A stretch of DNA of 64,000 bases from a bacterium. GTDB lineage: Bacteria; Patescibacteriota; Minisyncoccia; Phycocordibacterales; UBA9973. This document shows positions 17,323-33,715 of the stretch, piece after piece (positions within the stretch are counted from its first letter, which is position 1; the number at the start of each line of letters is the position of its first letter). The DNA is taken from assembly GCA_037127795.1 (NCBI GenBank), contig JBAXXQ010000001.1:405198-469197 (forward strand), given 5' to 3'. The notes beneath the pieces were generated by a model. That model searched no databases. It was not told where the DNA came from and worked only from the letters and a program-made list of their open reading frames with translations. Both the position numbers and the translations under genes were made by a program.

Positions 17323-17392
17323 TTTGTGCTTGAGACCAGACTTGAACTGGTGACATCTCCCTCTTCAGGGGAGCGCTCTACCAACTGAGCTA
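17323..17392 (-). repeat. 70-nt direct repeat: partial copy of the tRNA-Phe 3' portion (attR-like end of the integrated element)
   Basis: Identical to 25320..25389. Here the 5' acceptor arm is replaced by non-complementary sequence (GCTCAGA vs the required GCTTGAG), so this copy is not a functional tRNA. Confidence 0.8.
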
Positions 17393-17576
17393 TCTGAGCG
17401 TTGGTATTTCCTTTATTATGCAATGTATTTTAATGATTTAGAGCCTATAATCCCCTTTTTGCCCTAAGCCTGTTTACATCCTGAAAAACCTTTATCTATT
17501 ACAATAATGTTTTCTAATAAACGACTTTGTAATAATATCAAATTTATATAAAATAATCAATTTACCGTATGTTTTT

Positions 17577-19061
17577 TTAAATTTCAGTATTAGCTGGTAT
17601 AAATTCCTTAACTTGAATGCTAATTTTAGGATAAACAAGTGACATTATAAATAAGGTTTTATTAACAATATCCAACATATCTTCTGTTACAGAATTCATT
17701 AAAGGAAATTGATATAAAGGTAGCCTGTGGAACCTATGCAACGGATTATAACATTTTTGATATACAGACTCTCTTATAGCCAACCAATTGGCATGAACAA
17801 AAGATGATGTATACGCATAATACTTATCATACATATTTTTTTCTCCAATATATTCGCATATTTTTCTTAGATCAAGAGAATCCCAATGTCCTAAATTAAT
17901 AGGAATAAATTCAACCCATACATCTTCATTTGCAATTTGTTCTATTTTTTCCTTATTAATACTAAAGCTTTTTAAATTACCCTCTTCAAATTTACGATAA
18001 ATTAAATTAGCTTGACCTGAACCATAAGAACGATACTCACTCCATATTTCTGGATTCTCAAATTCTTTTTTTATTAAATATGCTAATGTTGCGTAAGTTT
18101 CAAACAATATTCGGAGCATTACCCTGCCATTAATTGATAATCCTGTTTTATACATATTATTTTCAATAAATATTGTAAGAGCATACATAGTAAGACCAAA
18201 AACTGCTTCATGTTTTGGGTCAACAGCCGAAGTTGTAGATGTTTCTATAGAATGGTCAATGAGTTCATTCCACACTTTTTGGGTTTCTTTATAATAATGA
18301 TCATGACTTTTTGTAATTTCATTCTCTAAACCTTTATATTTAACATTTTTTTCACCTTCTATACTGTCCTCAGAAATACAACCTGTAAAATTATATGAAT
18401 AGTTCCAAAAATCCATAGCCCAAGTATTCATACTAATACCTGGTATTTGCATAATCTCTGCAGCTCTAATCATAGGCCTAACCTTTCTTTGATCCCCTTT
18501 GTTCGGATAATTTAAAATTTCAGACAACATATCTGGTGGAACATGCATTTTACCACTATTAATTGCAGCTGTTAGCTTAAGCCATCTACAATCTGTAGCT
18601 TTTTGAGATTGATGCCATAAACAATCTTGTACAGCATTACCTAGTGTAGACCAATCCTTAATCGGAACGGGTTTTTTATTTATTACATCTTCCCATTCCT
18701 TAATAAAAGGAAGATTTGGAAAAAGTAAAATTGGACGCAAAAGAGTACATATATCTTCTTTGGCATAAGAACAAATATGTGTTATAAATGCGATACGATC
18801 TAATTCAGAAAATTTTGAAATACCAGAAATTGTTATATCGAATAAATCTTTTTTATTAAGAGTAAATTCTAAACAATACCTAAAAAAGGCCAAAGCATCC
18901 TCTCTTTCTAATTGAGATATAATTAATACAGCCCACAATATTTCTGGAAGCCTATCATCTATCCATGAAGCTTTAGTCATTCCTATTTGAGCTAGTGGTG
19001 GGGTCAGCTTTTTACCTTCTTTTTTATATTTACTTAGCTCAGTTTCGTTTTTACCTTTCAT
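17577..19061 (-). CDS. Hypothetical 494-aa protein (element cargo)
   Basis: Long AT-rich ORF inside the element. Predicted helical, no catalytic motif recognised by eye. Co-oriented with, and 10 nt downstream of, the small basic protein gene. Confidence 0.45.
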   Translation of the reverse strand: MKGKNETELSKYKKEGKKLTPPLAQIGMTKASWIDDRLPEILWAVLIISQLEREDALAFFRYCLEFTLNKKDLFDITISGISKFSELDRIAFITHICSYAKEDICTLLRPILLFPNLPFIKEWEDVINKKPVPIKDWSTLGNAVQDCLWHQSQKATDCRWLKLTAAINSGKMHVPPDMLSEILNYPNKGDQRKVRPMIRAAEIMQIPGISMNTWAMDFWNYSYNFTGCISEDSIEGEKNVKYKGLENEITKSHDHYYKETQKVWNELIDHSIETSTTSAVDPKHEAVFGLTMYALTIFIENNMYKTGLSINGRVMLRILFETYATLAYLIKKEFENPEIWSEYRSYGSGQANLIYRKFEEGNLKSFSINKEKIEQIANEDVWVEFIPINLGHWDSLDLRKICEYIGEKNMYDKYYAYTSSFVHANWLAIRESVYQKCYNPLHRFHRLPLYQFPLMNSVTEDMLDIVNKTLFIMSLVYPKISIQVKEFIPANTEI

Positions 19062-19071
19062 ATTAATATTT

Positions 19072-19389
19072 TCATCTTACCTTCTCTCTTTCTTGAGCAA
19101 GTGCTTTTAATGAAAATACTGGTTTAATAGTCATATCCATAGTATCTTTTGGTCTTCCCCAAGCACGATCTGACAACCATTTACGGGCCTCAGGATCGCC
19201 ATTTTTAGCCTGCTCAATAGCTTTATCTACAATTGGTCCAAACTCAGTAAAAAGCTTTAATGCGAGCAATTCACGTGCTTTTTCATGCTCAAGTGCAGCA
19301 ACACCTTTTTTTCTTCCAGCACCTATTCGTTTGCCACCTCGTTGTATTTCCATGTTAATATTATACCATAAAAAGTGCTTGTTTACCAA
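19072..19389 (-). CDS. Small basic putative DNA-binding protein (possible excisionase/regulator of the element)
   Basis: Lys/Arg-rich N-terminus (GGKRIGAGRKKG), ~100 aa, first gene of a minus-strand pair in the element. The function is inferred from context only. Confidence 0.3.
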   Translation of the reverse strand: MVNKHFLWYNINMEIQRGGKRIGAGRKKGVAALEHEKARELLALKLFTEFGPIVDKAIEQAKNGDPEARKWLSDRAWGRPKDTMDMTIKPVFSLKALAQEREKVR

Positions 19390-19441
19390 TTTGAATTATT
19401 GATTGATATCAAAAATATTAGTGTATTAATTAGTATTAAAT

Positions 19442-20740
19442 ATGGTATTATCAAATAATATGGAACATATAAACTATGTAGAGATTTTAAAGAAAAAACT
19501 TCAGTCTCTCTTTGAAAAAGAAGACTGGAGTGAGAAAGATTTTTCTGAGGTTTTTTATGCTACTGACTCAAAAATTCAGGTCATTTGGATTTTAAATGAT
19601 TGGGTAAAAGACGGAAAATATATTGAAGAGTCTATGAGGGTCGCTGAGATATTAAAAAATGATCGGGACCCTATTATAAATAGTGAAGAAGATAAAAATG
19701 CCAAAGATGGTAAAGATATAAATTTTATTCATACAGTAAGAGGATCTCTTCCTTATTTACTAGAAAAGATCACTGCAAGTTTAAAAACTGAATACTATAC
19801 ACGCATATTAGATGTTACAGAAGATTTATTAAATGACAAAAATATTTACGTAAGAGCTCACGCTGTAACAGCGTTACTAAGTCTTTCTTATAATGTTTAT
19901 GCAACTAATCGTAACGATGGAACACCTTTTAATTTTGAAGATAGAGAGCGTGTTAGAGTGCTTGCCTTGAGGGTATTAAATGAAAATCATGTATACCCTA
20001 GAGTTTTAGAATTCGTAACAAGAGTTTTTGATAGATTACGCAGACTTAACGAGAACGATGCTAAAGTTTTTTTTGATTACTTACTTTATAAAAATATCGA
20101 AGAAAAAACATATAACCCTGATTATGTTTTAGAAAATGTAGCTCCTTTGTTGATATATTACGCTGAATTTCGTATAAAAATAAAAGACAATTTCAATGAT
20201 ACTTTCTTTAAAGAACTACTTATTTCTGTAATTAAAACAGCTCCTCCTAGATTAAAATCAACACTTGTCTGGCATATTTGGAAAGTTATAGAGGAAGATG
20301 CTTCTTGTTTAGGGGCTTTTGAAAAATATATAGATATTATTTTTGAAGGTGATTTTCAAAAAGAAACAGTTGGACAGTTGGAAATCTTAATGGAAAAAGT
20401 GTTTTCTATAGATCAAAACTTAGGAATTATAATATTTAAAAAATACATAAATTATATTGAAAAAAGGCAAACAAACGAAATGTTATGGCTTTTAAGTGTT
20501 CAAGATTTTTTACCTAAGATCGCAGATTTTGATGCTGATATTTTTTTAGAATCTTTAAAATCTCTTGTAGGTATATGGAGAAAAGGAAATGCTTATATTG
20601 GTGATTATAAAAATCTATTTAATTCGTTTACTTATATAAAAGAAAAAACTAAAAGAGAGCTAGTAAGGTATGAGGTTTTAAAAATCTTTTCTGAGATGCA
20701 TAAAATTAAGTCTGAGGTACTTGAAAGTTATGAAGATTGA
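19442..20740 (+). CDS. Hypothetical 432-aa alpha-helical (HEAT/ARM-like) protein (element cargo)
   Basis: Repeated helical segments with HEAT-like strings (YVRAHAVTALLSLS). Its last 20 nt overlap the next ORF, which suggests translational coupling. Confidence 0.4.
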   Translation: MVLSNNMEHINYVEILKKKLQSLFEKEDWSEKDFSEVFYATDSKIQVIWILNDWVKDGKYIEESMRVAEILKNDRDPIINSEEDKNAKDGKDINFIHTVRGSLPYLLEKITASLKTEYYTRILDVTEDLLNDKNIYVRAHAVTALLSLSYNVYATNRNDGTPFNFEDRERVRVLALRVLNENHVYPRVLEFVTRVFDRLRRLNENDAKVFFDYLLYKNIEEKTYNPDYVLENVAPLLIYYAEFRIKIKDNFNDTFFKELLISVIKTAPPRLKSTLVWHIWKVIEEDASCLGAFEKYIDIIFEGDFQKETVGQLEILMEKVFSIDQNLGIIIFKKYINYIEKRQTNEMLWLLSVQDFLPKIADFDADIFLESLKSLVGIWRKGNAYIGDYKNLFNSFTYIKEKTKRELVRYEVLKIFSEMHKIKSEVLESYED

Positions 20741-21305
20741 TGAATATAGAGATCTTATCGTGGAGTGTAAGAGAAGCTTAGAATCTTCGGAGCGTCTTTT
20801 TAAAGATGTCTTTGTTTCCTCTGTTATTACGAGTAACGGGATTGTTGCCTTGAGTCAGGATAATTTAGAAAGAAATAAAAAGATGCGATATATGGCGGTT
20901 GCATTGATATGTATCGAATGGGAATCTTTGAGATCTCAAATACATCATTCTGATCAAAGTAAGCATCATAAATTTTGTATTAAAGTATATAAAGGGGATA
21001 ATGCATGGGGCACAACAAAGAGTTTGAGGGAGTTGGGTATTTTAAGAGATTGTATTATGCACCATGGTGGAGAAATATTTAGATATACAGAGTGGATGAA
21101 GCGTAAAAGAGGTGTAATTGTAGTAATAGACAAAAAATATGAAGATCCTAAAACAAAGAAACTATCTTTTACAGATGAGCATCTTTTTTATTTTTTTAAA
21201 TTAATTAAAGAAGATAGTTTGGATCATATCTTTACTAGAATAGAAAACCATATTGAGAAAAATAACCCACCAGTTTCAATCCTTAAAAGACTTAGATTAT
21301 TTTAA
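20721..21305 (+). CDS. Hypothetical 194-aa protein (element cargo), overlapping the upstream ORF
   Basis: ORF in operon arrangement with 19442..20740. No motif recognised. Confidence 0.4.
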   Translation: MKVMKIDEYRDLIVECKRSLESSERLFKDVFVSSVITSNGIVALSQDNLERNKKMRYMAVALICIEWESLRSQIHHSDQSKHHKFCIKVYKGDNAWGTTKSLRELGILRDCIMHHGGEIFRYTEWMKRKRGVIVVIDKKYEDPKTKKLSFTDEHLFYFFKLIKEDSLDHIFTRIENHIEKNNPPVSILKRLRLF

Positions 21306-21661
21306 TATTTAGTTCCGATAAAATAGGCTACTAATAAGGTTCCGTATATAGCTATATACGGGTATATGTTTTTAATAAAACTAGATCCAAAAATAAGAAA
21401 AAGAAAGGAGTATAAGAATAGTTCTATTATGATTTCTTTATTCCATTTACTGTGTTGTCCAACTGTAAATGCAATATAAAAATACAGTGCCAAACCAATT
21501 ATAAAACTAATCCAAATAATATTAGGAGAAAAAATATTTGATATGGTCTGAATTAAGATTGAGCTTAGGATTATAATCGAGCTCCACATTATCCATCTCA
21601 AATTAGTTATTTGAATTTCTTTTTGTTCTAATTGGTGATGTAAAAAATCTTCTTTGTCCAT
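21302..21661 (-). CDS. Small membrane protein (three predicted TM helices)
   Basis: Hydrophobic stretches IIILSSILIQTISNIF, ISFIIGLALYFYIAF and LFLYSFLFLIFGSSFI. Confidence 0.35.
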   Translation of the reverse strand: MDKEDFLHHQLEQKEIQITNLRWIMWSSIIILSSILIQTISNIFSPNIIWISFIIGLALYFYIAFTVGQHSKWNKEIIIELFLYSFLFLIFGSSFIKNIYPYIAIYGTLLVAYFIGTKY

Positions 21662-21667
21662 ACCTAT

Positions 21668-21904
21668 TTACTGTTGTTTTCGTATTACTTTATAGATCCA
21701 AATAGCCCCAGATATAATTCCAGCATAAAATACTGGCGGCATAATAAGTCCAATAAGAAGGCATGCACCAGCTGTATTCCTATATTCTTCACGAGTCATT
21801 TTTTTAAATTTCCACCAATCTTTTTTAGATATATCACCAAATCCAGTTTTTTCTAGTATAGGCGAAGGTGATATTTTAAATGATTTAATTTTGTCTTTTT
21901 CCAT
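21668..21904 (-). CDS. Small membrane protein
   Basis: C-terminal TM helix (ACLLIGLIMPPVFYAGIISGAIWIY). Start taken at MEKDKIK. The longer ORF-track start overlaps an AT-rich leader. Confidence 0.3.
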   Translation of the reverse strand: MEKDKIKSFKISPSPILEKTGFGDISKKDWWKFKKMTREEYRNTAGACLLIGLIMPPVFYAGIISGAIWIYKVIRKQQ

Positions 21905-22255
21905 AGGTTTTTTTTGCAAAAATGATAATTCCATAGAGTGGAACACAAAAAGCCCACCACATGGAGTGAGGGTTTTAAGGCCCTCCATACTCGTTTCCAA
22001 GTATGGCCTGCAAAGACAAATCCCCATCTGATGGGTTCTTTATGTCTTTGCAGGACGATTTTTTCACCATGCCGCTGATTGCTCAAGGGTTTAGGCTACT
22101 TATTACTATTTAGTTGTACATCTAGAATATCACATGTGCTAAAAGATATCCACAGGTATAGATGCTTGCCCAAAAATGGCAGTGCGTTATGATTGGATCA
22201 CACGATTATATCGCCCAATAAAAGTATGGTTTCTGATTGAAATATATTCGAACGT

Positions 22256-22335
22256 AAAGATAAAATTAGAAGATAAAACTAAAAGATAAAAATGCAGACA
22301 AAAATAGATAATATTACAAACCTAAATAAGATAAA
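22256..22335 (+). repeat. Iteron-like direct repeats (AAGATAAAA x5), part of the putative origin of replication of the element
   Basis: aaagataaaat / gaagataaaac / aaagataaaaa at a 13-bp pitch (22256, 22269, 22282), then atagataat (22303) and aagataaac (22327). Confidence 0.5.
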
Positions 22336-22349
22336 CATCTACATACAGA

Positions 22350-22431
22350 ATTCCTGAACGTTCTAAAGTAAGCCTACTGCTTACTTGGTGGGTCGTCTTT
22401 TGACGTTCAGGAACCTACTAAGTAAATAGTA
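22350..22431 (+). repeat. Nested inverted repeats immediately upstream of the Prim-Pol gene (putative ori/operator)
   Basis: Outer stem ttcctgaacgt/acgttcaggaa (11 bp). It encloses an inner hairpin aagtaagc-ctact-gcttactt. A third hairpin ctacta-agtaaa-tagtag follows. Confidence 0.5.
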
Positions 22432-22451
22432 GACTTTGTCTTCATTCAAAT

Positions 22452-24251
22452 ATGAATAAAACAAATCTTGATGAAGCTATTAAATTAAGCGAACTGAACT
22501 GGAGTATTATACCAATAGGAAACAATAAAAAACCTCTCGTAAAATGGAAAGAATTTCAAGAAAGACTAGCAACTAAAGAAGAAATAACATCTTGGTTTAA
22601 AAGATGGCCAAATGCAAATATTGCTGTTGTTACAGGTAAAATATCAAACGTTATTGTTTTTGATATAGACGCAAAACACGGTAGAGAAATAAGAGAATTC
22701 CAAATACCGCCTACAATTATCTCAAAAACTGGAGGTGGTGGTAATCATATATTCTTTAAATACCCCGATCGACATGTCCCGAATTCAAATGGTACTCTTT
22801 TTGGAGAAGGAATAGATATTAAAGGGGATGATGGGTATGCAATAGTACCTTATTCATCTCATAAATCTGGTAATTTTTATGAATGGGTTGAAATGTGTTC
22901 TCCGTTTGATATAGAACCAATAGATGTCCCAAACTGGCTGTACAATAAATTATTTGAAAATAATAATTCTGACAGTAAAACAAAATTATGGGAAAAAGAA
23001 ACATCTGATGTATTAGAAGGTACAAGAAACCAAACAGCAGCATCTGTAGCTGGTAAGATAATAAATACAATTCGAGAAGAAAATATACCTATCATTGGAT
23101 GGAACATGTTTAAGGATTGGAATAAAAATATTCCATCCCCTCTTCCCGAAAAGGAATTAAGAAGTACCTGGGAGAGTATCGGAAAATACCATACAACTAA
23201 TGGAGAGGAATCTAAGCCTCTTCTTGAAAAAATTAATATTACATCATGGAAACAATTCTCAAAAAAAGATTTTTCTGAAGTAAGCTGGCGTATACAGAAC
23301 CTTATACCTATGGAGGGTTTTGTTATATTATCTGCAATTTCAGGAGAAAAGAAGACATGGGTTTCTCTTGAGATGGCAAAATGTATTGCTGAAGGTATAA
23401 ACTTTTTAGGGACCGAGCTCTTTAAAACTGAACAAGGAAAAATACTCTATATTGATCAAGAAAACCCTGAACGAGACATTGTTCGAAGAGGTAAACAGCT
23501 TGGATTCAAAGAGAATGAAAATTTCTATATTTATAGACCAAACTCTTTAAACTTAAACGATGAAAAAATTGTTAAAGAATTATTAAGTAAAATTAAAGAA
23601 AACAATATTAATGTTGTCTTCATAGATACATTCCGAGCAGTTGCAGGAGGACTCAAAGAAGATAAGGCTGAAGATGTTCGCATGTTTTTTAACCGTTTTA
23701 AAATACTAAAAGATAGTGGTGTTGTAATCGTATGGCTCGATCATCGAAGAAAACCTGCCAACTTTGAAGGAAAAGTGCCTAAAAAAGAACAATTACTGGG
23801 TAGCCAAGACAAGACAGCTAGTGTTGAAATACTACTCCAACTATCAAGTGAATCTGGAAGTAACGAAATACGTGTATTTCAAGCAAAGAATCGCCTAGAT
23901 AGAGAGATAAATGCTTTTAAAATAGCTATGGTTGATAAAGATAACGAAGATGGGACAAGAACTACAGATTTAATTTATGATGGTGAGATTGATGAAGATG
24001 AGACAAAAAAGAATGAAGCAAAAGAGTATATATTGGAATTATTAGGATCGGGAGGTAAAACAACAAAAGAAATAAAAAATACTGTTTCAACACAGAGAAA
24101 AATTGGCGAGAAGAACATAAGACTTGCACTAGGTGAACTTGTTGATAGCGAGCAAATCGATTATTCTAAAAAAGGGCGCAGTCATTTCTATTTTATTAAA
24201 GAAACATCATCTTTAGAAGAATCAGAAATAATGAGTTTGGACGATCTCTAA
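22452..24251 (+). CDS. Replication initiation protein: N-terminal bifunctional primase-polymerase (Prim-Pol) domain fused to a RepA/AAA_25-like helicase-loader domain
   Basis: Prim-Pol motifs: WSIIPIGNNKKPLVKWKEF, the DxD motif IVFDIDAKHG, and GGGNHIFFKYP. The C-terminal half has a RecA-like ATPase pattern (ILSAISGEKKTWVSLEMAKCIAEG ... VVFIDTFRAV ... WLDHRRK), typical of plasmid/phage RepA or AAA_25. Confidence 0.7.
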   Translation: MNKTNLDEAIKLSELNWSIIPIGNNKKPLVKWKEFQERLATKEEITSWFKRWPNANIAVVTGKISNVIVFDIDAKHGREIREFQIPPTIISKTGGGGNHIFFKYPDRHVPNSNGTLFGEGIDIKGDDGYAIVPYSSHKSGNFYEWVEMCSPFDIEPIDVPNWLYNKLFENNNSDSKTKLWEKETSDVLEGTRNQTAASVAGKIINTIREENIPIIGWNMFKDWNKNIPSPLPEKELRSTWESIGKYHTTNGEESKPLLEKINITSWKQFSKKDFSEVSWRIQNLIPMEGFVILSAISGEKKTWVSLEMAKCIAEGINFLGTELFKTEQGKILYIDQENPERDIVRRGKQLGFKENENFYIYRPNSLNLNDEKIVKELLSKIKENNINVVFIDTFRAVAGGLKEDKAEDVRMFFNRFKILKDSGVVIVWLDHRRKPANFEGKVPKKEQLLGSQDKTASVEILLQLSSESGSNEIRVFQAKNRLDREINAFKIAMVDKDNEDGTRTTDLIYDGEIDEDETKKNEAKEYILELLGSGGKTTKEIKNTVSTQRKIGEKNIRLALGELVDSEQIDYSKKGRSHFYFIKETSSLEESEIMSLDDL

Positions 24252-24321
24252 AAGCTAACTATTAATGTATTACCAAATTACCACGATAGTGTTCTATATC
24301 ATGGCAATTTGGTAATTATTA

Positions 24322-25278
24322 TTAAGTATTCAATGGATGTTTAGCCATTTGCCCACGTAAGTGCTCTGCGCTCGCATATAAATATATAGTCGTGGTCTTG
24401 ATATCTGCGTGGCCGAGCATTTTCCCTAAAGAATAGATATCTACTCCCCCTTCAAGCATTAACGTTGCAAACGTATGTCTAAGCTTGTGGGCTGTAAAGA
24501 ATATCCCAGAGGATGTCCGTATTTTCTCAATAAGGTTTTTAAGCCCTGTTTGCGTAAAACCAAGATTATGATTAAGTGACGTAAAGAACTCCGGGCATGT
24601 CTTATGGAGCCTGTGACGCTCTTCTAGATACCGTATAAGGCTCTGTGCGAGCGTTTGCGACATAGGAACTACACGATCCTTATTCCCCTTCCCTTGCCTA
24701 ATAAATATGGAAAAATTCTCTATATCTACGTCCATTAATTTAAGCTTCAAAAGCTCTTGTTTTCGCAACCCTGCATGAATGAACATAGAAAATATCGCAT
24801 GGTTCCTATACCGTAAAAATCTATACTTATATGGATAATTATAGACAACCTCAAGTAGTCGCTGTGTATCATACTGTGTTAATTTTGGCGGTAGCTTTTT
24901 ATGAAGCTTTGGTACTTCAATATCCTGTACCGGATTCTTTTGTATATATCCTTCCTTAATACACCAGCGGAAAAATACCAAGAGTGACTTATGGTAATGT
25001 AAAAAAGTATTCGGACTCCAATTGCGCTCAGTCCTACCGTTATAAAAGAAGTTTCGTATAGAATCCTCAGTTACTTGAGTGATATCTCTCGTATGTGTTG
25101 AATTTGAATAAAAGGTAACAACTTGCCTATATCTCTTGATGGTAACCTTCGAGAAACCTTTTATAGATAAAGAATGATCACAAAACTTCTCACATAAAAA
25201 TAATATATCCATGTTTTTTGTGTAAAGAGAAAGATCTTTTAGGATAGCCCGTAAGCTGTTTACACAAGGGAGAGACAA
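24322..25278 (-). CDS. Tyrosine recombinase/integrase
   Basis: C-terminal catalytic region HKLRHTFATLMLEGGVDIYSLGKMLGHADIKTTTIYLY shows the R..H-x-x-R...Y signature. Lies adjacent to the tRNA-Phe att site. Confidence 0.85.
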   Translation of the reverse strand: MSLPCVNSLRAILKDLSLYTKNMDILFLCEKFCDHSLSIKGFSKVTIKRYRQVVTFYSNSTHTRDITQVTEDSIRNFFYNGRTERNWSPNTFLHYHKSLLVFFRWCIKEGYIQKNPVQDIEVPKLHKKLPPKLTQYDTQRLLEVVYNYPYKYRFLRYRNHAIFSMFIHAGLRKQELLKLKLMDVDIENFSIFIRQGKGNKDRVVPMSQTLAQSLIRYLEERHRLHKTCPEFFTSLNHNLGFTQTGLKNLIEKIRTSSGIFFTAHKLRHTFATLMLEGGVDIYSLGKMLGHADIKTTTIYLYASAEHLRGQMAKHPLNT

Positions 25279-25323
25279 AAAAAATACCTCATTATCAAAA
25301 ATAGATTGATAATAAAGGATGTT

Positions 25324-25396
25324 GTGCTTGAGACCAGACTTGAACTGGTGACATCTCCCTCTTCAGGGGAGCGCTCTACCAACTGAGCTACTCAAG
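25324..25396 (-). tRNA. tRNA-Phe(GAA), intact copy reconstituted at the attL-like end
   Basis: Acceptor GCTTGAG/CTCAAGC (perfect), D-arm GCTC-AGTTGGTA-GAGC, anticodon arm CTCCC-CTGAAGA-GGGAG (anticodon GAA), T-arm ACCAG-TTCAAGT-CTGGT, discriminator A. Confidence 0.85.
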
Positions 25397-25454
25397 CAAT
25401 ACCATTTGGTACATATTTTATACACGAAAAAAGACTTTTTTGCAAATAGGAAAT

Positions 25455-26835: not shown

Positions 26836-26907
26836 GTGCCTCCAGTACGAATCGAACGTGCAATTACTCCTTAGGACGGAGTCGTTATATCCATTTAACT
26901 ATGGGGG
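26836..26907 (-). tRNA. tRNA-Arg(CCT)
   Basis: Reverse complement reads GCCCCCA-TA-GTTA-AATGGATA-TAAC-G-ACTCC-GTCCTAA-GGAGT-..-TTCGATT-..-TGGAGGC-A, giving anticodon CCT. There is one C-A mismatch in the acceptor stem and one in the T stem, so confidence is reduced. Confidence 0.6.
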
Positions 26908-26929
26908 CTATAGCCCCGTAAGGCATATA

Positions 26930-27160
26930 TTATGCGAGCATTTCCTTGATAACACTTTCTTGGAAACCAACAGTGACAGCGTCTCCAATCTTGATTACTG
27001 GTACGCCAAGCTGGCCAGTAAGCGCAACCATTTCTTTACGTTTTTCTATATCAGTACCAACATTATATTCAGTAAAGGCGAGATTATTTTTCTTAAAAAA
27101 ATCTTTTGCTAAATTACAATAATGGCAAGTTGTGGTGCTGTAAATGGTTATTTCTTTCAT
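26930..27160 (-). CDS. Glutaredoxin-like protein (NrdH/Grx family)
   Basis: CHYC redox motif near the N-terminus (MKEITIYSTTTCHYCNLAKDF), ~77 aa, with GVPVI.. as in glutaredoxins. Confidence 0.6.
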   Translation of the reverse strand: MKEITIYSTTTCHYCNLAKDFFKKNNLAFTEYNVGTDIEKRKEMVALTGQLGVPVIKIGDAVTVGFQESVIKEMLA

Positions 27161-27188
27161 ATGTGTATAGTATATCACACCCACAAAA

Positions 27189-27563
27189 CTAGAACCAAGA
27201 GCACACCATATCCCAAAAACGCTGTATTTTTGATCGAGGTGCAGGTGCAGGCTCGGGTGCTGGAGTACCGATAATTACCATACCTTCATCGGGTTTTACC
27301 AAGTGATATTTCTCTCGAAGCTCCATTTCTTGCCCCAAAGGAGTCTGCAAAAAACGAGTTTCTTCTTCTAGTTTCCCCTTTTTACTATCAAGGAGGGCTT
27401 GTTGTTGTTTTGCGGTATTTATACTTTTACGCAAACCGAGATATTTTTTACCCAAAGAAAATACAGAATTGGACAATACGAAAAATAATACCAATAGTAC
27501 AAATATTTTTATAAAGCTTTTCCATGAAAGATAGCTCTCTTTTTGTGTACTTTCTAGATTCAT
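27189..27563 (-). CDS. Septum formation initiator (FtsB/DivIC-like) protein
   Basis: Single N-terminal TM helix followed by a coiled-coil (LGLRKSINTAKQQQALLDSKKGKLEEETRFLQ), then a short Pro-rich tail. This matches the FtsB/DivIC architecture. Confidence 0.45.
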   Translation of the reverse strand: MNLESTQKESYLSWKSFIKIFVLLVLFFVLSNSVFSLGKKYLGLRKSINTAKQQQALLDSKKGKLEEETRFLQTPLGQEMELREKYHLVKPDEGMVIIGTPAPEPAPAPRSKIQRFWDMVCSWF

Positions 27564-27702
27564 ACGAATATGATACCATATCTATATGTTATTCAATCAA
27601 AATCCCAAAAAAGTAGGTATCGCCTGGAAGATTTTTTCTGCAATCATTATCGTAGGAATGATTTTGGTATACCTCCCAAATATCTTTTTTAAATAGTTTT
27701 TC

Positions 27703-29484
27703 CTATTCTCCAGATTTCATTACTTTGATGAATACATCATGCGGTATATTTATCCGTGCGTATTCAGCCATTTTCTTCTTTCCCTTCTTTTGTTTATCGA
27801 GCAATTTGTTTTTTCGACTTACATCTCCTCCGTATAGGTGCCCAGTCACATCTTTACGAAACGCTTTGAGTGTGCGAGATGCAACAATACGGCCATATGC
27901 ACGAGCTTGGATTTTCATCACGACTTGCTGACGAGGAAGTAGTTTTTCAAGCTTGTCGACAAAATCATCTGCTTCTTCTTGCATGCGTTTACGAGAAATA
28001 ATCCGAGTAAATGCTGGCTGTTCTTCGTCTCCAATAATAATATCCATACGGATAACATCTGCAATACGAGACTCTATTTGTTCATATGCAATAGATGCAT
28101 ACCCAGAACTAATACTTTTTATACCATCAAAAAATCCTCGCATAAGCTCACGAAGCGGCATAAGTACTACCAACTTCATTCTTCCATCTCCAAATTGCTC
28201 AAGCTCTTCTACGGTCGCCTCGTGATCATAGAGAAACGGCATAAGCACTCCTGAGTATGACTCTGGACTCAAAATAGAAACTCGTACCCAAGGCTCCATT
28301 ACTTGCTGGATTTGCCCATCATCTGGAAAAAGGTGCGGTGAGTACACTGAGATAGTTTTTCCTCCGCGAACTATTACTTCATAAGTAATAGACGGCAATG
28401 TAACAATAAGATCAAGATTGAATTCTCGACGAAGACGCTCGGTAATAATTTCCAAGTGCAACATACCAAGAAAACCACATCTATATCCGCGACCAAGCGC
28501 ACCAGACACTTCTTCTTCAAAAGAAAATGCTGAATCAGAAAGTCTCAAACGGCCAAGCGCCATACGCAAATCATCAAAATTGTCCTGACTTTCTGGGTAT
28601 ATAGACGCCCAAACCACAGGGCGCGGCTGTGTGTACCCTGGAAGTGCTTCAGTCTTCCCTTTTTGACTCACAATAGTATCTCCAACAGAGGCAATACCAG
28701 GCTGTTTTATACCCGTCACAATGTAGCCTATAGTGCCCGAAGAGAGGTTTTCTTGGGCTGTAGGCTCTGGAGTAAAGACTCCCACTTCAAGGGCCTGAAA
28801 CGCTTGATTTGAGGCTGCAAAGCGCAATGTATCCCCTTTTTTGATACTTCCATCAAATACACGCACAAATACAATAACCCCTTTGTGATTTGAATAACTA
28901 AAATCAAAAACCAGTGCTTGTGGGTTGGGGGTGGTCAATACATGTGGTGGCGGAATACGGTCAATAATAGTATCGAGAAGCTCTGCAACACCGAGACCAG
29001 TTTTTCCAGACACTTGGACAATATCTGACTCTGATACATCGAGCAATGTACAAATTTCAAAAATAACTTCATCTATTTTTGCAAATGGCGCATCTACTTT
29101 TGTAATAACAGGAATAATAACGAGCCCACTTTCTTTTGCCATAGCGAGAGTTGTCAATGTTTGTGCTTGCACTCCTTGTGTACCATCGACAAGCAATAGC
29201 GACCCTTCAACAGCTTTCAATGCGCGAGAAACTTCATAAGAAAAATCTATATGTCCAGGAGTATCGATAAGGTTCAATACATGATCCTTATACCGCATTC
29301 GTACCGGCTGCATTTTGATAGTAATACCGCGTTCACGTTCAAGCTCCATAGAGTCGAGTACTTGGTCACGCATTTTACGCGCCTCAACAGTACCAGTAAC
29401 CTCAAGCATTCTATCTGCAAGAGTACTTTTACCGTGGTCAATGTGTGCAATAATACTAAAATTGCGTATTTTTGGTGATTCCAT
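27703..29484 (-). CDS. lepA: Elongation factor 4 (LepA)
   Basis: IRNFSIIAHIDHGKSTLADR G1 motif, DTPGHIDF, NKVD-like VITKVD, and the LepA-specific C-terminal region. The ORF track extends 16 codons further upstream. Confidence 0.9.
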   Translation of the reverse strand: MESPKIRNFSIIAHIDHGKSTLADRMLEVTGTVEARKMRDQVLDSMELERERGITIKMQPVRMRYKDHVLNLIDTPGHIDFSYEVSRALKAVEGSLLLVDGTQGVQAQTLTTLAMAKESGLVIIPVITKVDAPFAKIDEVIFEICTLLDVSESDIVQVSGKTGLGVAELLDTIIDRIPPPHVLTTPNPQALVFDFSYSNHKGVIVFVRVFDGSIKKGDTLRFAASNQAFQALEVGVFTPEPTAQENLSSGTIGYIVTGIKQPGIASVGDTIVSQKGKTEALPGYTQPRPVVWASIYPESQDNFDDLRMALGRLRLSDSAFSFEEEVSGALGRGYRCGFLGMLHLEIITERLRREFNLDLIVTLPSITYEVIVRGGKTISVYSPHLFPDDGQIQQVMEPWVRVSILSPESYSGVLMPFLYDHEATVEELEQFGDGRMKLVVLMPLRELMRGFFDGIKSISSGYASIAYEQIESRIADVIRMDIIIGDEEQPAFTRIISRKRMQEEADDFVDKLEKLLPRQQVVMKIQARAYGRIVASRTLKAFRKDVTGHLYGGDVSRKNKLLDKQKKGKKKMAEYARINIPHDVFIKVMKSGE

Positions 29485-29607
29485 ATTAGTATTGCATTTT
29501 AACACAAAAAACAAAAAATGTATATAAATCAAACTATAAATATAAAAAGCCCTGTGATATACACAAGGCTTTTAGTAAAAAAAATGAACGTAATTATTAT
29601 TTTACAT

Positions 29608-31980
29608 CTACAGTGATGAATCTTTTTTTAGATGGTATTTTTCAAAACCAGAAACTAAAATAGTATCGTATCTCGTAAGATTAAAACTTTTTTGATCTTT
29701 GATACCAGATAACATACTGTTGTTCAACATAAGAGCTGATTTAAAACCATCTTTCTCACTAACCACTGAGTTAGATATTGCTTCTTTTTGAAAAAGCACA
29801 CTATCTTTCGAGATTTCTTTTCGAGCCTCATCTGATATTGGAGCAATCAGTTTTATTTTTTCACCAACTTTTTTAACTTTTGCTTTTGCTAAAAAATCTG
29901 GATGAACACCAACAACTTCATTATCCCAAATTTTAACCTTAAAACTTGCCAATTCTTCACCTAACATACCAACAATAACTAAACCGTCATCTTGATTTAT
30001 TAGTGAATTTAAAGAAATAAGAGCATCTGTGTCTACATTAGCAATCTTTTGTTTAGCTTCTTTTCTAGTTTTAGCTAAGCTTTCTAATATAGGCTGTTTT
30101 TGATCAAGATAATCTTCGTATTCACCTACCTTTCGTTCGCGCAACAATTCAGTACTAATAGGTAATTCAAAAATTTTCAATGCAATACGGGCAGGTAAGA
30201 ATATTTCGTATGGATACAAATCCACAGAAGGTACTACTACACTTACACCTGTATATGCACATTTTTTTGTAAATAAGCACTTTACCGTCTCTTGATACAT
30301 CTTATCGAGAGATTTACAAAAAATCTTTCCATCTACAACAATCGCTTTGTCATATTGGGTTTTTGTATTAGAAAAAAGTGACCGTACAGCTGACACTAAC
30401 ATACAATACTCATTAACAAGTATTACTATTGGAGCTTTAATTTCCAAAAGTCTTTTAAATCGGTTGTTACGAATAATAATCCTACGATATAAGACATCAA
30501 TTGTCGACATACTATAAGTACCATCTTTTTCTTTTCCCAACATCCTAAAACCAGCAGGTATTACAAGTACATTTTCTAAAAAAACAGTTCCCTCAAAAGG
30601 TGCACATTGCTTTAATACACCTATTACAGATATATTATTTTTCGGATAAAACACCTCTCTAAACAATGAATCCAATTCCACACTACATTCAAGATTTTTA
30701 GCGCTAAAAAACTCTTTAAATAATTTTTGAAAATTAACACTTGTTTCATCTTGAAAAATAGGATTTGGTACAGGTACTGCCAAAGCAATATGACCAAAAC
30801 TACGGCGAAATATATCCTGTTTTTTTTCAGTGCCAAAAATCTTTTCACAAAATAATCCATTTTCTGAAAATTTTGTACAAGCTTTGTCACTAAAATAATC
30901 TGGAGTAGTAACCTCACCTTTTGATAAAGCTAATATTTCAGCTGTAGTTATTTTTGATACACGTAAATACGGTTTTTCTCCCTTAATAATCTCTGGTAGA
31001 AACCCCATACCCTGTAATAAACAAAAGCTATCCTCTAAAGAAACCCCTTCATCTGAACCAATAGTAATCCATTCAGAAACACTTTTTTCCAAACCTTTTT
31101 CTACTGCCTTTTGAATAAAAGTCTCCTTTAAAAGAACACCCTCATCTAATTGCATATTGTTTTTGAAAAATAACCCAGACATACCTACAGATTGACTTTT
31201 TGCTTCTACTAGGCCGGGCTGAATGTTGAATTTGAAAAAATCTACATACGCCTTTTCTTTAGTATCAACCCAATATGATCTGCCATTTTTATGCTCTCTA
31301 ACAGAAAGAAGAATCCTATCGTCTTTTTTGTTTTTAATAATATTTCTAAAATTCTCTTTTTCGGTTTTTTCCTCAGAAAGAATAGAAGATGTTACTACTA
31401 TTGAACAATAAATTTGTGGATCTTCTTCAAGCACAGGCATTTCTTTTTCACGAAGAATACCAGCCACAAGAAATTTTTGTTCTTCACAAAAAATAGTATC
31501 ACCAATAGAAAGATTACGTTTAATCAATAAGTAAATAGAAATTTTATTATCTACTCGCTCTGTCGATACTACGGTTGCCTTATCATAAAACCCCATAGAA
31601 ACTCCGGTATTTTCGATTATCTGACCGAAAACATTTTCCACCAGTCTTTCCTTAGAATTTTTTGGTTCAATTTTTTTAACTTTTGCAACCAGTAAATCAC
31701 CACAAGAAACCTCTGTACCAACATTAATAATACTGTCAGTACTACGTGCTTTGAAAAAATTTAAATCTTTTTCACTAATACGAGGCAGATTATTATCTAG
31801 CCATTCATCAGTTTCAAGTAAGATATCAACCTTTTCAACAATTGCTGTTTCAAAATATTTTTTATCAACAACTTTTTGGCTTACAAAAGCCATGTTTGGA
31901 GTATTGATGCCACCCCAAGAAGGCATAACAGTGGTAAGTAATCCTTTACTTACGGTGTCAGAAATTTTTCTTACGTTCAT
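29608..31980 (-). CDS. Degenerate RNA polymerase beta(C-terminal)/beta'(N-terminal)-like fusion protein lacking catalytic motifs
   Basis: Residues ~90-180 align with the RpoB C-terminal region (GDLLVAKVKKIEP..ERLVENVFGQ ~ GDILVGKVTPKGE..LLRAIFGEKA; ISIYLLIKRNLSIGD..EKEMP ~ VKVYLAVKRRIQPGD..IEDMP). GRHGNKG is replaced by CEEQKFLVAG. Residues ~360-640 align with the RpoC N-terminus (ENGLFCEKIFG ~ RDGLFCARIFG; RRSFGHIALAVPVPNPIF ~ RRERMGHIELASPTAHIWF; STIDVLYRRIIIRNNRFKRLLEIKAPIVILVNEYCML ~ [38 protein letters not shown]). No zinc-finger cysteines. No NADFDGD. Confidence 0.6.
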   Translation of the reverse strand: MNVRKISDTVSKGLLTTVMPSWGGINTPNMAFVSQKVVDKKYFETAIVEKVDILLETDEWLDNNLPRISEKDLNFFKARSTDSIINVGTEVSCGDLLVAKVKKIEPKNSKERLVENVFGQIIENTGVSMGFYDKATVVSTERVDNKISIYLLIKRNLSIGDTIFCEEQKFLVAGILREKEMPVLEEDPQIYCSIVVTSSILSEEKTEKENFRNIIKNKKDDRILLSVREHKNGRSYWVDTKEKAYVDFFKFNIQPGLVEAKSQSVGMSGLFFKNNMQLDEGVLLKETFIQKAVEKGLEKSVSEWITIGSDEGVSLEDSFCLLQGMGFLPEIIKGEKPYLRVSKITTAEILALSKGEVTTPDYFSDKACTKFSENGLFCEKIFGTEKKQDIFRRSFGHIALAVPVPNPIFQDETSVNFQKLFKEFFSAKNLECSVELDSLFREVFYPKNNISVIGVLKQCAPFEGTVFLENVLVIPAGFRMLGKEKDGTYSMSTIDVLYRRIIIRNNRFKRLLEIKAPIVILVNEYCMLVSAVRSLFSNTKTQYDKAIVVDGKIFCKSLDKMYQETVKCLFTKKCAYTGVSVVVPSVDLYPYEIFLPARIALKIFELPISTELLRERKVGEYEDYLDQKQPILESLAKTRKEAKQKIANVDTDALISLNSLINQDDGLVIVGMLGEELASFKVKIWDNEVVGVHPDFLAKAKVKKVGEKIKLIAPISDEARKEISKDSVLFQKEAISNSVVSEKDGFKSALMLNNSMLSGIKDQKSFNLTRYDTILVSGFEKYHLKKDSSL

Positions 31981-32077
31981 TTTATTATAGTTTTAAAGAA
32001 CGTGGTCCTACGTCTATTTTTATACTCCCATTTCGGTTTTGGAGTTATGAACAATATAGCAACTTATTATATTTTTG

Positions 32078-33715
32078 TCAATATATATTTATTTTCAATT
32101 TATTTTGTAATATACCAATAGTTTGGATTGCTGTCTCGTTTTTTATTGATACAAGAAATGCGATATACAAAATACTAAAGCAAATAGACAGTACAGCACA
32201 GTATATAAGTAGCGGGAGCAAATGAAGTGTTATAAGGTAGCTATGTAGTCGAATAAGAACAACACTTGCCATACCAAAAACGATCACACAACCCAACACA
32301 CTCTGCCATACTGTTTGCAAAATATTTGAATCAGCGATAATACCGTCTTGCTGCTCACTTTGTATTTTTTTATGTAATGCAACCCACAAAAGAATTGCAT
32401 TTATTATCTGCACGAGAGAATACGCTCCCACCAAAGCAAATACTTCTTGTCCTTTTACTATAGGAAATACATACAAAAAGATCCCTATAAAAATTGGTGT
32501 CAAAAATAATGCAAAGAAATTTATTTTCAAAGGAATCTTTGTCTCCCCCATTGCATAAAATCCTCGCACCAATACAAGTATCATACTTTGTACTGCAAAT
32601 GATATAGAGAATATCGCAAGACACCATGCAGCGATAGTTATATAGTGTGGACCAAAGTGTCCTGATCCGAGCAAAATGCGCACTGCGTATTCGCGGAACA
32701 ATATAGAAAGCGCACACAATGGAATCGAGATAAATACTATCATTGCAATAGTTCTATGTATAAGCCCAGAAAATCCTGATAGGTTTTTTTCTGTATACAA
32801 TTCAGATAATGCCGGGAAACTTGCTACCGCATATGATATACCAATAATCATCAACGGTGTTGTCTGGATATTATATGAGAGCTGGAAGAGAGACAGTGTC
32901 CCTACAGAAAGTACTGACGCAAATGCGCTGATAATGAGAAAAGATACTGAGTTGAGAGATAGTCCAATAGTTCTCGGAATAGAAAGCCTTATTACCTCTT
33001 TTACTAAAGGCATATCGATATGGTGAGTTATTCCTGTACGGATCCCCATTCGCTTCAATGGTACGTAGTGCGTCAAAAAGTGTAATATTGCGCCAATCAC
33101 AACACCGTAGACAATACCAATAATACCGAAATGCGGTAAGAAGAAAATAATACCTGCGAGGATACCGATATTGTACAAAACTGGTGATAATGCAAAAGCA
33201 AAGAACTTTTTTTCTATTTGAGAAAATGTACCGAGCAAGTTTGAAAGCCCCAAGAAAAATGGCGACAAGAGTAATACTCGAGAAACTTCTACAAACAACA
33301 CCTTATCAGCAAGAGTGAACCCTGGTACCAAGAAATGCGCAAGATACGGCATCGCAATAAAACACACAGTACACAATATACTCATTCCTATAAGGTAGAT
33401 AGACAAAATACTATCGAGAAATGTAGTAAGCTTTTCCCCTTTTTCTGTCGCATCTTTTGCAAGTATTCGTGTGATAAATGGAATAAGTACGGTCATTGAA
33501 AACAATGACGCAAATGATGCATACAGAAAATCTGGTAACTTGAATGCCGCATAGTATACATCAAGCGAAGATGACGGGCCCAATATACCTGCAAGCATGT
33601 GATCTCGCAACAATCCAATCAATTGTGAAAGCAAAGAAAAAGCACCAAGAAGCAGGGCTGCATGGTGCACATTCTTTGTATCTTTATGAAATAAATCTAC
33701 GATTTTTGAGAACAC
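32078..33715 (-). CDS. murJ: Lipid II flippase MurJ (MviN)
   Basis: 14-TM polytopic protein. The N-terminal LLGAFSLLSQLIGLLRDHMLAGILG...YYAAFKLPDFLY pattern is typical of MurJ. Confidence 0.8.
   Translation of the reverse strand: MFSKIVDLFHKDTKNVHHAALLLGAFSLLSQLIGLLRDHMLAGILGPSSSLDVYYAAFKLPDFLYASFASLFSMTVLIPFITRILAKDATEKGEKLTTFLDSILSIYLIGMSILCTVCFIAMPYLAHFLVPGFTLADKVLFVEVSRVLLLSPFFLGLSNLLGTFSQIEKKFFAFALSPVLYNIGILAGIIFFLPHFGIIGIVYGVVIGAILHFLTHYVPLKRMGIRTGITHHIDMPLVKEVIRLSIPRTIGLSLNSVSFLIISAFASVLSVGTLSLFQLSYNIQTTPLMIIGISYAVASFPALSELYTEKNLSGFSGLIHRTIAMIVFISIPLCALSILFREYAVRILLGSGHFGPHYITIAAWCLAIFSISFAVQSMILVLVRGFYAMGETKIPLKINFFALFLTPIFIGIFLYVFPIVKGQEVFALVGAYSLVQIINAILLWVALHKKIQSEQQDGIIADSNILQTVWQSVLGCVIVFGMASVVLIRLHSYLITLHLLPLLIYCAVLSICFSILYIAFLVSIKNETAIQTIGILQNKLKINIY

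Follow-up and report, generated by a model that had tools for sequence, protein, structure and literature searches.

Four cargo genes, probably of three separate units, in a tRNA-Phe-integrated element of 8.0 kb with phage-satellite-like features

The element and its four left-end genes

A 64-kb stretch of contig JBAXXQ010000001.1 from a Patescibacteria-type bacterium (the window; positions are counted from its first nucleotide) carried an integrative element of 8.0 kb, and four genes at the left end of this element were analysed. Two were on the minus strand: the gene of a stand-alone DitA-family protein of 494 aa (DUF5677; 17577-19061), which was the last gene before the left attachment site, and the gene of a small-terminase-like basic protein (19072-19389), with 105 aa from a TTG start or 93 aa from an ATG at 19353. 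The other two diverged from them on the plus strand: the gene of an ARM/HEAT-type alpha-solenoid protein of 432 aa (19442-20740), and the gene of a HEPN-domain protein of 194 aa (191 aa from an ATG at 20730), a predicted RNase (20721-21305). The original prediction had given these four open reading frames (ORFs) at the same positions and strands of the ORF list, the gap of 10 nt from the stop of the 105-aa ORF to the start of the 494-aa ORF, and the divergent arrangement, and all of this stood. It had also described two pairs of proteins without domains or motifs. The reading favoured here, with some reserve, is that the four genes form three separate units on a tRNA-Phe-integrated, phage-satellite-like element.

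The integrative element itself, already proposed from the same sequence, was confirmed by its repeat, tRNA gene, integrase, PrimPol gene and low GC content. A repeat search of the window returned a tRNA-Phe-derived direct repeat of 69 nt (100% identity) at 17324-17392 and 25322-25390, with a spacing of 7,998 bp between the two copies. The left copy (attL; no strand) corresponded to the 3' part of tRNA-Phe and formed the left element end, and its area (17327-17399, minus strand) was scored by Rfam as tRNA-like (52.7 bits). The right copy (attR) lay inside an intact tRNA-Phe(GAA) gene (25324-25397, minus strand; ARAGORN), which had an Rfam tRNA score of 70.8 bits, the whole feature covering 25322-25397. 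The GC content was 28-34% inside the element, compared with 38-42% in the left flank.

A replication protein (22452-24251, plus strand) combined PrimPol and PriCT_1 domains with a helicase-type AAA_25 ATPase plus a winged helix-turn-helix (Pfam Prim-Pol 9.9e-29, AAA_25 7.7e-24, PriCT_1 7e-7). It also matched PHROG DNA polymerase/primase families, and no PrimPol relatives were found in viral contigs. A tyrosine-type integrase (24322-25278, minus strand) was assigned from motifs read directly from the ORF sequence, its C-terminal HKLRHTFAT...GH..IKTTTIYLY being indicative of a tyrosine recombinase. No capsid, tail or lysis genes were found in the element.

The exact element, all eight genes included, was also present in a second sample (Logan SRR12676973), where it formed a separate contig of 7,986 bp. 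This contig matched the window from about 17366 to 25351, with both ends about 30 nt into the 69-nt att repeat. Such ends fit a circular or excised form, but the contig was rejected as proof of an excised circle because a k-mer graph break at the repeat explains them equally well.

The solenoid-HEPN gene pair

A homologue of the 432-aa protein was followed by a homologue of the 194-aa protein (143-200 aa), within 0-13 nt or overlapping, in 14 of 14 other loci, these being the distinct loci with sequence available downstream of the 432-aa homologue. In the window the two genes overlapped by 20 nt, as first described, if the second is read from its TTG start, and by 11 nt if it is read from the ATG at 20730, the start that both NCBI and Logan had called. 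The pair forms a genuine conserved operon, and the arrangement of its coding sequences points to translational coupling.

The 194-aa protein carried an Rx4H motif encoded at 21045-21062 (R109-D-C-I-M-H114), so that the earlier statement that no nuclease motif was visible was not upheld. In the alignment of the 15 family members E104, R109 and H114 were invariant (E-x4-R-[N/D/H]-x3-H, a pattern that includes the Rx4-6H catalytic signature of HEPN proteins), and the residue after R was N or D in 13 members and H in two. Pfam HEPN_RiboL-PSP (PF18735) was matched by 6/15 members (best 4.2e-5), and other members matched HEPN_MAE_28990, Cthe2314 and Swt1. A hidden Markov model (HMM) of the 13 other family members scored the window protein at 1.3e-12. 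Homologues were gathered from gene neighbourhoods and by exhaustive phmmer. A word-indexed homology search with the 194-aa protein returned the protein itself and nothing else, and exhaustive phmmer among 1.8e9 proteins returned six representatives of the family including itself (five other real matches, together with one spurious repeat protein). On these grounds the 194-aa protein is predicted to be a HEPN protein with an intact catalytic motif and RNase activity. Ribo L-PSP-HEPN proteins have been described as catalytically intact and related to AbiD/AbiF, and HEPN genes have been described in operons with genes of repeat proteins, AbiU2 with Sel1 and LA2681 with TPR (PMC3710099).

Homologues of the 432-aa protein were rare, with only 13 among 5.8e9 proteins, and the one match that had a lineage name came from a metagenome-assembled genome of the Patescibacteria group. 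Its AlphaFold2 (AF2) model, calculated with a 13-sequence alignment, was all-alpha with about 22 helices (predicted local distance difference test, pLDDT, 88.4; predicted template-modelling score, pTM, 0.81). The best Foldseek matches in the PDB were armadillo designs, importin-alpha and AP2 (E about 6e-4). Foldseek template-modelling (TM) scores were 0.25-0.39, and therefore the likeness in fold is generic. As modelled, the protein is a stacked helical-repeat solenoid of the armadillo/HEAT type, in agreement with its original description as HEAT-like. Neither the 432-aa nor the 194-aa protein matched PADLOC, and the 432-aa protein had no Pfam match.

Neighbours of the pair in other loci included methylases, restriction enzymes, AbiU2, Ymh and Cthe2314 HEPN proteins, an Ltp-like lipoprotein, resolvases and serine recombinases. 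The islands were tRNA-adjacent, and one of them had a terminase domain. No defence system composed of a HEAT and a HEPN protein was found described in the literature. The best reading of the pair, as judged from sequence and context, is a rare module of the abortive infection (Abi) or toxin-antitoxin (TA) type that is absent from PADLOC. The solenoid would bind the HEPN RNase in an inhibitory complex, or would act as the sensor. Once the solenoid recognises a phage component, or the partner is lost, the RNase would be freed, and it would then cleave cellular or phage RNA and cause aborted infection, or the death of cells that lose the element.

The main rival to an Abi mechanism is a pure addiction role, in which the pair would be a plasmid-style TA module that stabilises the element, with the solenoid as labile antitoxin and the HEPN RNase as stable toxin. 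The tight coupling of two genes that always occurred together is consistent with such a role, as are the classic use of HEPN proteins as TA toxins (PMC3710099) and the constant location of the pair on tRNA- or recombinase-associated islands. However, a solenoid of 430 aa would be very large for an antitoxin, and most neighbours of the pair had to do with restriction-modification, Abi or superinfection exclusion and not with plasmid maintenance. A TA role is moreover compatible with a role in abortive infection. Addiction as the sole role is considered rather unlikely, with perhaps one chance in a few, and the Abi/TA-like module is retained as the best reading.

An orphan structured RNA, LOOT (Rfam RF03000), was located on the minus strand at 21968-22097 (cmscan 76 bits, gathering threshold 46.4, model positions 1-121 of 121). 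On the same strand were two 119-aa ORFs (21302-21661 and 21668-22027, together 21302-22027; ORF list) with long hydrophobic stretches, which by eye appear to be membrane segments, and with no family matches. The first ~20 codons of the ORF at 21668-22027 overlapped LOOT, and its true start is therefore probably further downstream; the Logan call was 106 aa. In 4/8 other long loci a LOOT copy lay 0.1-6.3 kb from the solenoid-HEPN pair, whereas only 2/80 DitA loci had a copy. The density was 5 copies in about 165 kb of pair loci versus 2 in about 870 kb of DitA loci. This suggests that LOOT is a mobile-element- or phage-associated RNA.

Other LOOT copies were located at L001:4974-5091, L005:9805-9925, L086:3104-3224, L094:1580-1701, L014:1453-1567 and L034:968-1078 (locus:positions). 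In L086 and L094 LOOT followed a homologous gene, and the L094 copy of this gene had a terminase nuclease domain. LOOT was also upstream of a shared gene family in L005, L086 and L094, and the L005 member of this family carried an Ltp lipoprotein domain.

Locus L001, from a related genome, had the flank tRNA-Arg(CCT)-glutaredoxin-DivIC-LepA-MurJ in common with the right flank of the window (26836-33715). In L001 a different island, which abutted tRNA-Arg, contained an AbiU2 HEPN gene and a Toprim primase along with the pair. Because this island lies in the syntenic flank beside tRNA-Arg, the tRNA-Phe/tRNA-Arg neighbourhood looks like an insertion hotspot. Between LepA and MurJ the host flank of the window also had a 790-aa ORF (29608-31980, minus strand).

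The DitA-family gene and the small-terminase-like gene

The 494-aa protein had been described as lacking any domain, which did not hold, as it matched both DUF5677 and PADLOC DitA. Its match to the PADLOC DitA profile (PDLC03826) extended over the full length (E 2.4e-74; residues 6-479 on profile positions 3-474 of 486), and its match to Pfam DUF5677 was above threshold (1e-17). With the verified DitA of Saccharibacillus kuerlensis it was colinear in BLASTP (25% identity, E 2e-25). By sequence comparison, the protein is a full-length DitA homologue, of the Aditi family. Aditi, a validated defence system, was described as two proteins with neither an assigned function nor an HHpred match (Millman et al. 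2022). The verified system from S. kuerlensis consists of DitA (483 aa) and DitB (372 aa). Its mechanism is given as unknown in reviews up to 2026, and no literature giving a mechanism was found.

DitB was not detected among the eight element proteins (no PADLOC match at E<=1), among all ORFs of the window (phmmer, E<=10), or in any fetched locus (HMM of two DitB sequences, E<=10). Of the 74 loci where this could be read, only 5 had a gene of DitB size downstream of the DitA-like gene on its strand. The 432-aa and the 194-aa proteins were both considered as a divergent DitB and rejected, as BLASTP against the two DitB sequences returned nothing; the hhalign probability between DitB and either family was <1%.

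DitA-like homologues numbered 701 at E<1e-5, with 141 relatives among candidate stretches in GTDB species genomes. Their hosts were lineages of the Candidate Phyla Radiation (CPR), Omnitrophota, Proteobacteria (including cultured Pseudomonas, Bradyrhizobium and Idiomarina) and archaea. A conserved partner of the DitA-like gene was sought by clustering of neighbours and rejected, as no family occurred in more than 3 of 77 loci. The 131 neighbours over these 77 loci included many restriction-modification, Abi, Mrr and methylase proteins, among them AbiEii-type ATPases and components of type I, II and IV restriction-modification, and also resolvases. The closest DitA-like homologues adjoined large serine recombinases, and a recent preprint reported DUF5677 to be enriched beside serine recombinases.

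Rare DitA homologues had additional C-terminal domains, namely HEPN_AbiV (two cases), the YbeY endoribonuclease or uracil-DNA-glycosylase (UDG), and these domains are possible clues to an effector partnership of DitA. The homologues with extra C-terminal domains were P0076, P0084, P0066 and P0092. In one of the closest relatives (L100:7001-9393) the DitA-like gene was followed by a second, shorter DUF5677 gene (263 aa), in what looks like a tandem.

The AF2 model of the 494-aa protein was all-alpha (pLDDT 89.8). Foldseek returned nothing significant for this model in the PDB, a PDB sequence search likewise returned nothing, and sequence-profile searches of the PDB with three protein families, DitA-like included, gave no real matches. 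In the model the central four-helix bundle weakly resembles HEPN toxins, and this is the sole biochemical lead. As Foldseek against the PDB was not significant and hhalign against a HEPN_AbiV domain was negative, the DUF5677 core is kept as a HEPN domain only as a weak lead. Anti-phage activity of the DitA-like protein on its own is given about an even chance.

The small basic protein upstream of the DitA-like gene was correctly recognised as an ORF by the original prediction, and its length is probably 93 aa rather than the 105 aa first stated. The start at the ATG at 19353 is favoured because a promoter-like site overlaps the TTG start and because the Logan gene call was 93 aa. The promoter-like site (TTGGTA-18-TATAAT with a TG extension; 19360-19389, minus strand; 10/12 consensus matches) would serve both this gene and the DitA-like gene, and its -35 box coincided with the TTG start. 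Promoter-like sites in the region totalled no more than expected by chance, so that the site at 19360-19389 is no more than suggestive.

Homologues of the 105-aa protein (38-59% identity) occurred in six distinct viral contigs. In all six they directly preceded, and usually overlapped, an ORF of 485-675 aa in the position of the large terminase. This ORF was identified as large terminase by PHROG in both contigs that were scanned (phrog_38 6.5e-104, phrog_979 2.7e-35). In a third contig it was a close homologue of a PHROG-confirmed large terminase (phmmer 5e-243), and in two more a Walker A motif was seen by eye. A portal gene followed the terminase in one contig by PHROG, and in three others it was recognised by eye from a common N-terminal sequence. 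Because its homologues stand immediately before the large terminase, which is the canonical position of the small terminase, the 105-aa protein is regarded as small-terminase-like. The 105/93-aa protein, small and basic, is probably DNA-binding. No large terminase was found in the window, as expected for a satellite. The only matches of the protein were DUF5681 in Pfam (0.018, weak) and phrog_15261 in PHROGs (7e-4, unknown function). One viral homologue (L106) had no PHROG match, and tblastn of a phage database with the 93-aa protein returned no match.

The pairing of the four genes as originally described thus held for the 432-aa and 194-aa genes and failed for the 105-aa and 494-aa genes, which were found together in 0 of 77 related loci. 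If the latter two were a dedicated two-gene system, the small protein would be the regulator or partner of an effector, and the 10-nt spacing and the common promoter-like site do imply co-transcription. The 105-aa protein was rejected as a DitA partner, as no homologue of it preceded any other DitA-like gene in the 77 loci, where there was no recurrent neighbour either. Its basic GG-K/R-x-GAGR-K/P-KG motif was in no ORF upstream of other DitA-like genes, and its family sits before phage large terminase genes. A dedicated system of these two genes is largely refuted and retains a very small probability. The reading preferred is that of a small-terminase-like gene and a DitA-like gene with separate functions.

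An anti-defence role, or a phage-derived function, was also considered for the solenoid-HEPN pair and for the DitA-like protein. Mobile elements do carry anti-defence genes, and some loci of the pair also carried a terminase-like gene and may be prophages. However, neither the 432-aa nor the 494-aa protein had relatives in 2.9 million viral contigs, which argues against a phage origin of both, DitA is from a validated defence system, and HEPN RNases are typical defence effectors. The anti-defence role first suggested is therefore not supported, and this alternative is considered highly improbable. Homology to phage proteins, which had been named as evidence against an accessory role, was found for the 105-aa protein, through the viral genes immediately upstream of the large terminase. 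The suggestion of defence cargo remained valid in that a mobile element carried the genes and that two of their three units were of defence type, and did not apply to the 105-aa gene, which was phage-packaging-like.

Satellite character and known systems

The combination of an integrase, a primase and a TerS-like gene, with structural genes absent, gives the element the appearance of a phage satellite. In this reading the 105/93-aa protein would belong to the transfer machinery of the element itself and would steer the large terminase of a helper phage to package element DNA. The DitA-like gene, located after the terS-like gene in the same transcription unit, would be defence cargo that acts alone, without DitB.

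A different reading takes the 105-aa protein as a transcription regulator or excision factor, and the element as an integrative plasmid or mobilisable island rather than a satellite. The small size, basic composition and probable DNA binding of the protein fit this reading, and it had no match to a curated small-terminase profile in Pfam or PHROG. Islands with an integrase and a PrimPol-helicase are often integrated plasmids, and the authors of SatelliteFinder caution that an element with three core genes may belong to another class of mobile element (PMC10085698). No alpA/stl/merR-type regulator was seen among the eight element proteins scanned (Pfam, PHROGs), a scan that did not cover the integrase or the small ORFs of 21300-22460, and no capsid-morphogenesis or remodelling gene was matched in the element by Pfam or PHROG. 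The capsid-morphogenesis gene is facultative, and is absent also from phage-inducible chromosomal islands (PICIs) of the Staphylococcus aureus pathogenicity island (SaPI) type (PMC10085698). On the other side, the synteny upstream of the terminase, which defines the small-terminase position, was found in 6/6 viral contigs, and no conjugation or mobilisation gene was found in the 8 kb (ORF list, Pfam scan). The regulator or plasmid reading is judged a minority possibility of appreciable weight, and the satellite-like reading is preferred.

The lack of a small-terminase profile match, of a regulator and of a capsid-morphogenesis gene weighs at the same time against three units on a satellite-like element, and several further points do so as well. 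The small-terminase call is based on synteny, and the element had only 3 of 5 PICI core functions. The window's own 194-aa protein had no direct Pfam HEPN match. The defence-type neighbours of the studied genes were a raw tally. Aditi as validated requires DitA and DitB, and the element had a DitA homologue only. We know of no host of this kind in culture. A DUF5677 gene tested alone in Enterococcus faecalis was not among the protective genes in a recent preprint.

The most far-reaching version of the satellite reading is speculative and on present evidence improbable. It would have a satellite of a Patescibacteria-type (CPR) bacterium hijack a helper phage by a divergent small terminase and provide its host with two immune modules not described before, a DitB-independent DitA and an Abi module of a HEAT/ARM sensor and a HEPN RNase, with LOOT as a regulatory RNA of such elements.

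Nothing in the region is categorically new, as the DitA family, HEPN modules and satellites are all known kinds. Neither PADLOC nor the literature searched had the specific variants, namely a DitA that lacks DitB, an operon of ARM/HEAT and HEPN genes, and an 8-kb element with a terS-like gene in a Patescibacteria-type genome. The region is a solid candidate, and we infer its function. The solenoid-HEPN pair offers a two-gene HEPN candidate outside PADLOC with a mutable predicted active site (R109/H114), from an uncultured lineage little explored for immunity. A large and widespread DitA-like clade without DitB bears on the workings of Aditi, especially on which protein is the effector. The 8-kb element, with its integrase, primase and terS-like gene and its lack of structural genes, suggests satellites in Patescibacteria-type bacteria, in which none were found described in the literature. 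LOOT, an Rfam motif without a known role, gains a genomic setting in mobile islands.

Compared with PICIs and SaPIs, the element was similar in being about 8 kb and att-integrated, in its integrase, its primase-replicase and, by synteny, its terS-like gene, and in being without capsid, tail and lysis genes. The DitA-like gene, at the element end, occupied the accessory slot after terS, and in the PICI-type layout accessory genes typically follow terS (PMC10085698). The element differed in that its terS assignment is drawn from synteny, and in its host, which by closest homologues and synteny appears to be of the Patescibacteria type, a group for which the literature searched described no satellites.

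Compared with Aditi, the 494-aa protein was similar as a full-length, colinear DitA homologue that is likewise carried in mobile and defence contexts. It differed in that the DitA-like clade of the window was stand-alone, without DitB, and distant from the verified protein.

Compared with HepT/MntA (HEPN-MNT), a type VII TA system, the solenoid-HEPN pair was similar as a two-gene operon in which a small HEPN RNase is the presumed toxic component. It differed in that the upstream gene encoded a solenoid with no enzymatic motif in place of an MNT partner. No MNT nucleotidyltransferase was found beside the 194-aa gene, and the 432-aa partner had no Pfam or NCBIfam nucleotidyltransferase match.

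Compared with the HEPN Abi and TA modules (AbiU2 with Sel1; LA2681 with TPR; AbiD/AbiF/Ribo L-PSP-HEPN; Anantharaman et al. 2013), the pair likewise combined a small HEPN protein with an intact Rx4H motif and an alpha-solenoid repeat protein in one operon, located on defence islands or mobile elements. Among Pfam families, HEPN_RiboL-PSP was the nearest to the homologues of the 194-aa protein. The family of the window differed from the HEPN_RiboL-PSP clade in being without the L-PSP fusion, and from the HEPN Abi and TA modules in its partner, which was an armadillo/HEAT-type solenoid of 430 aa and not Sel1 or TPR.

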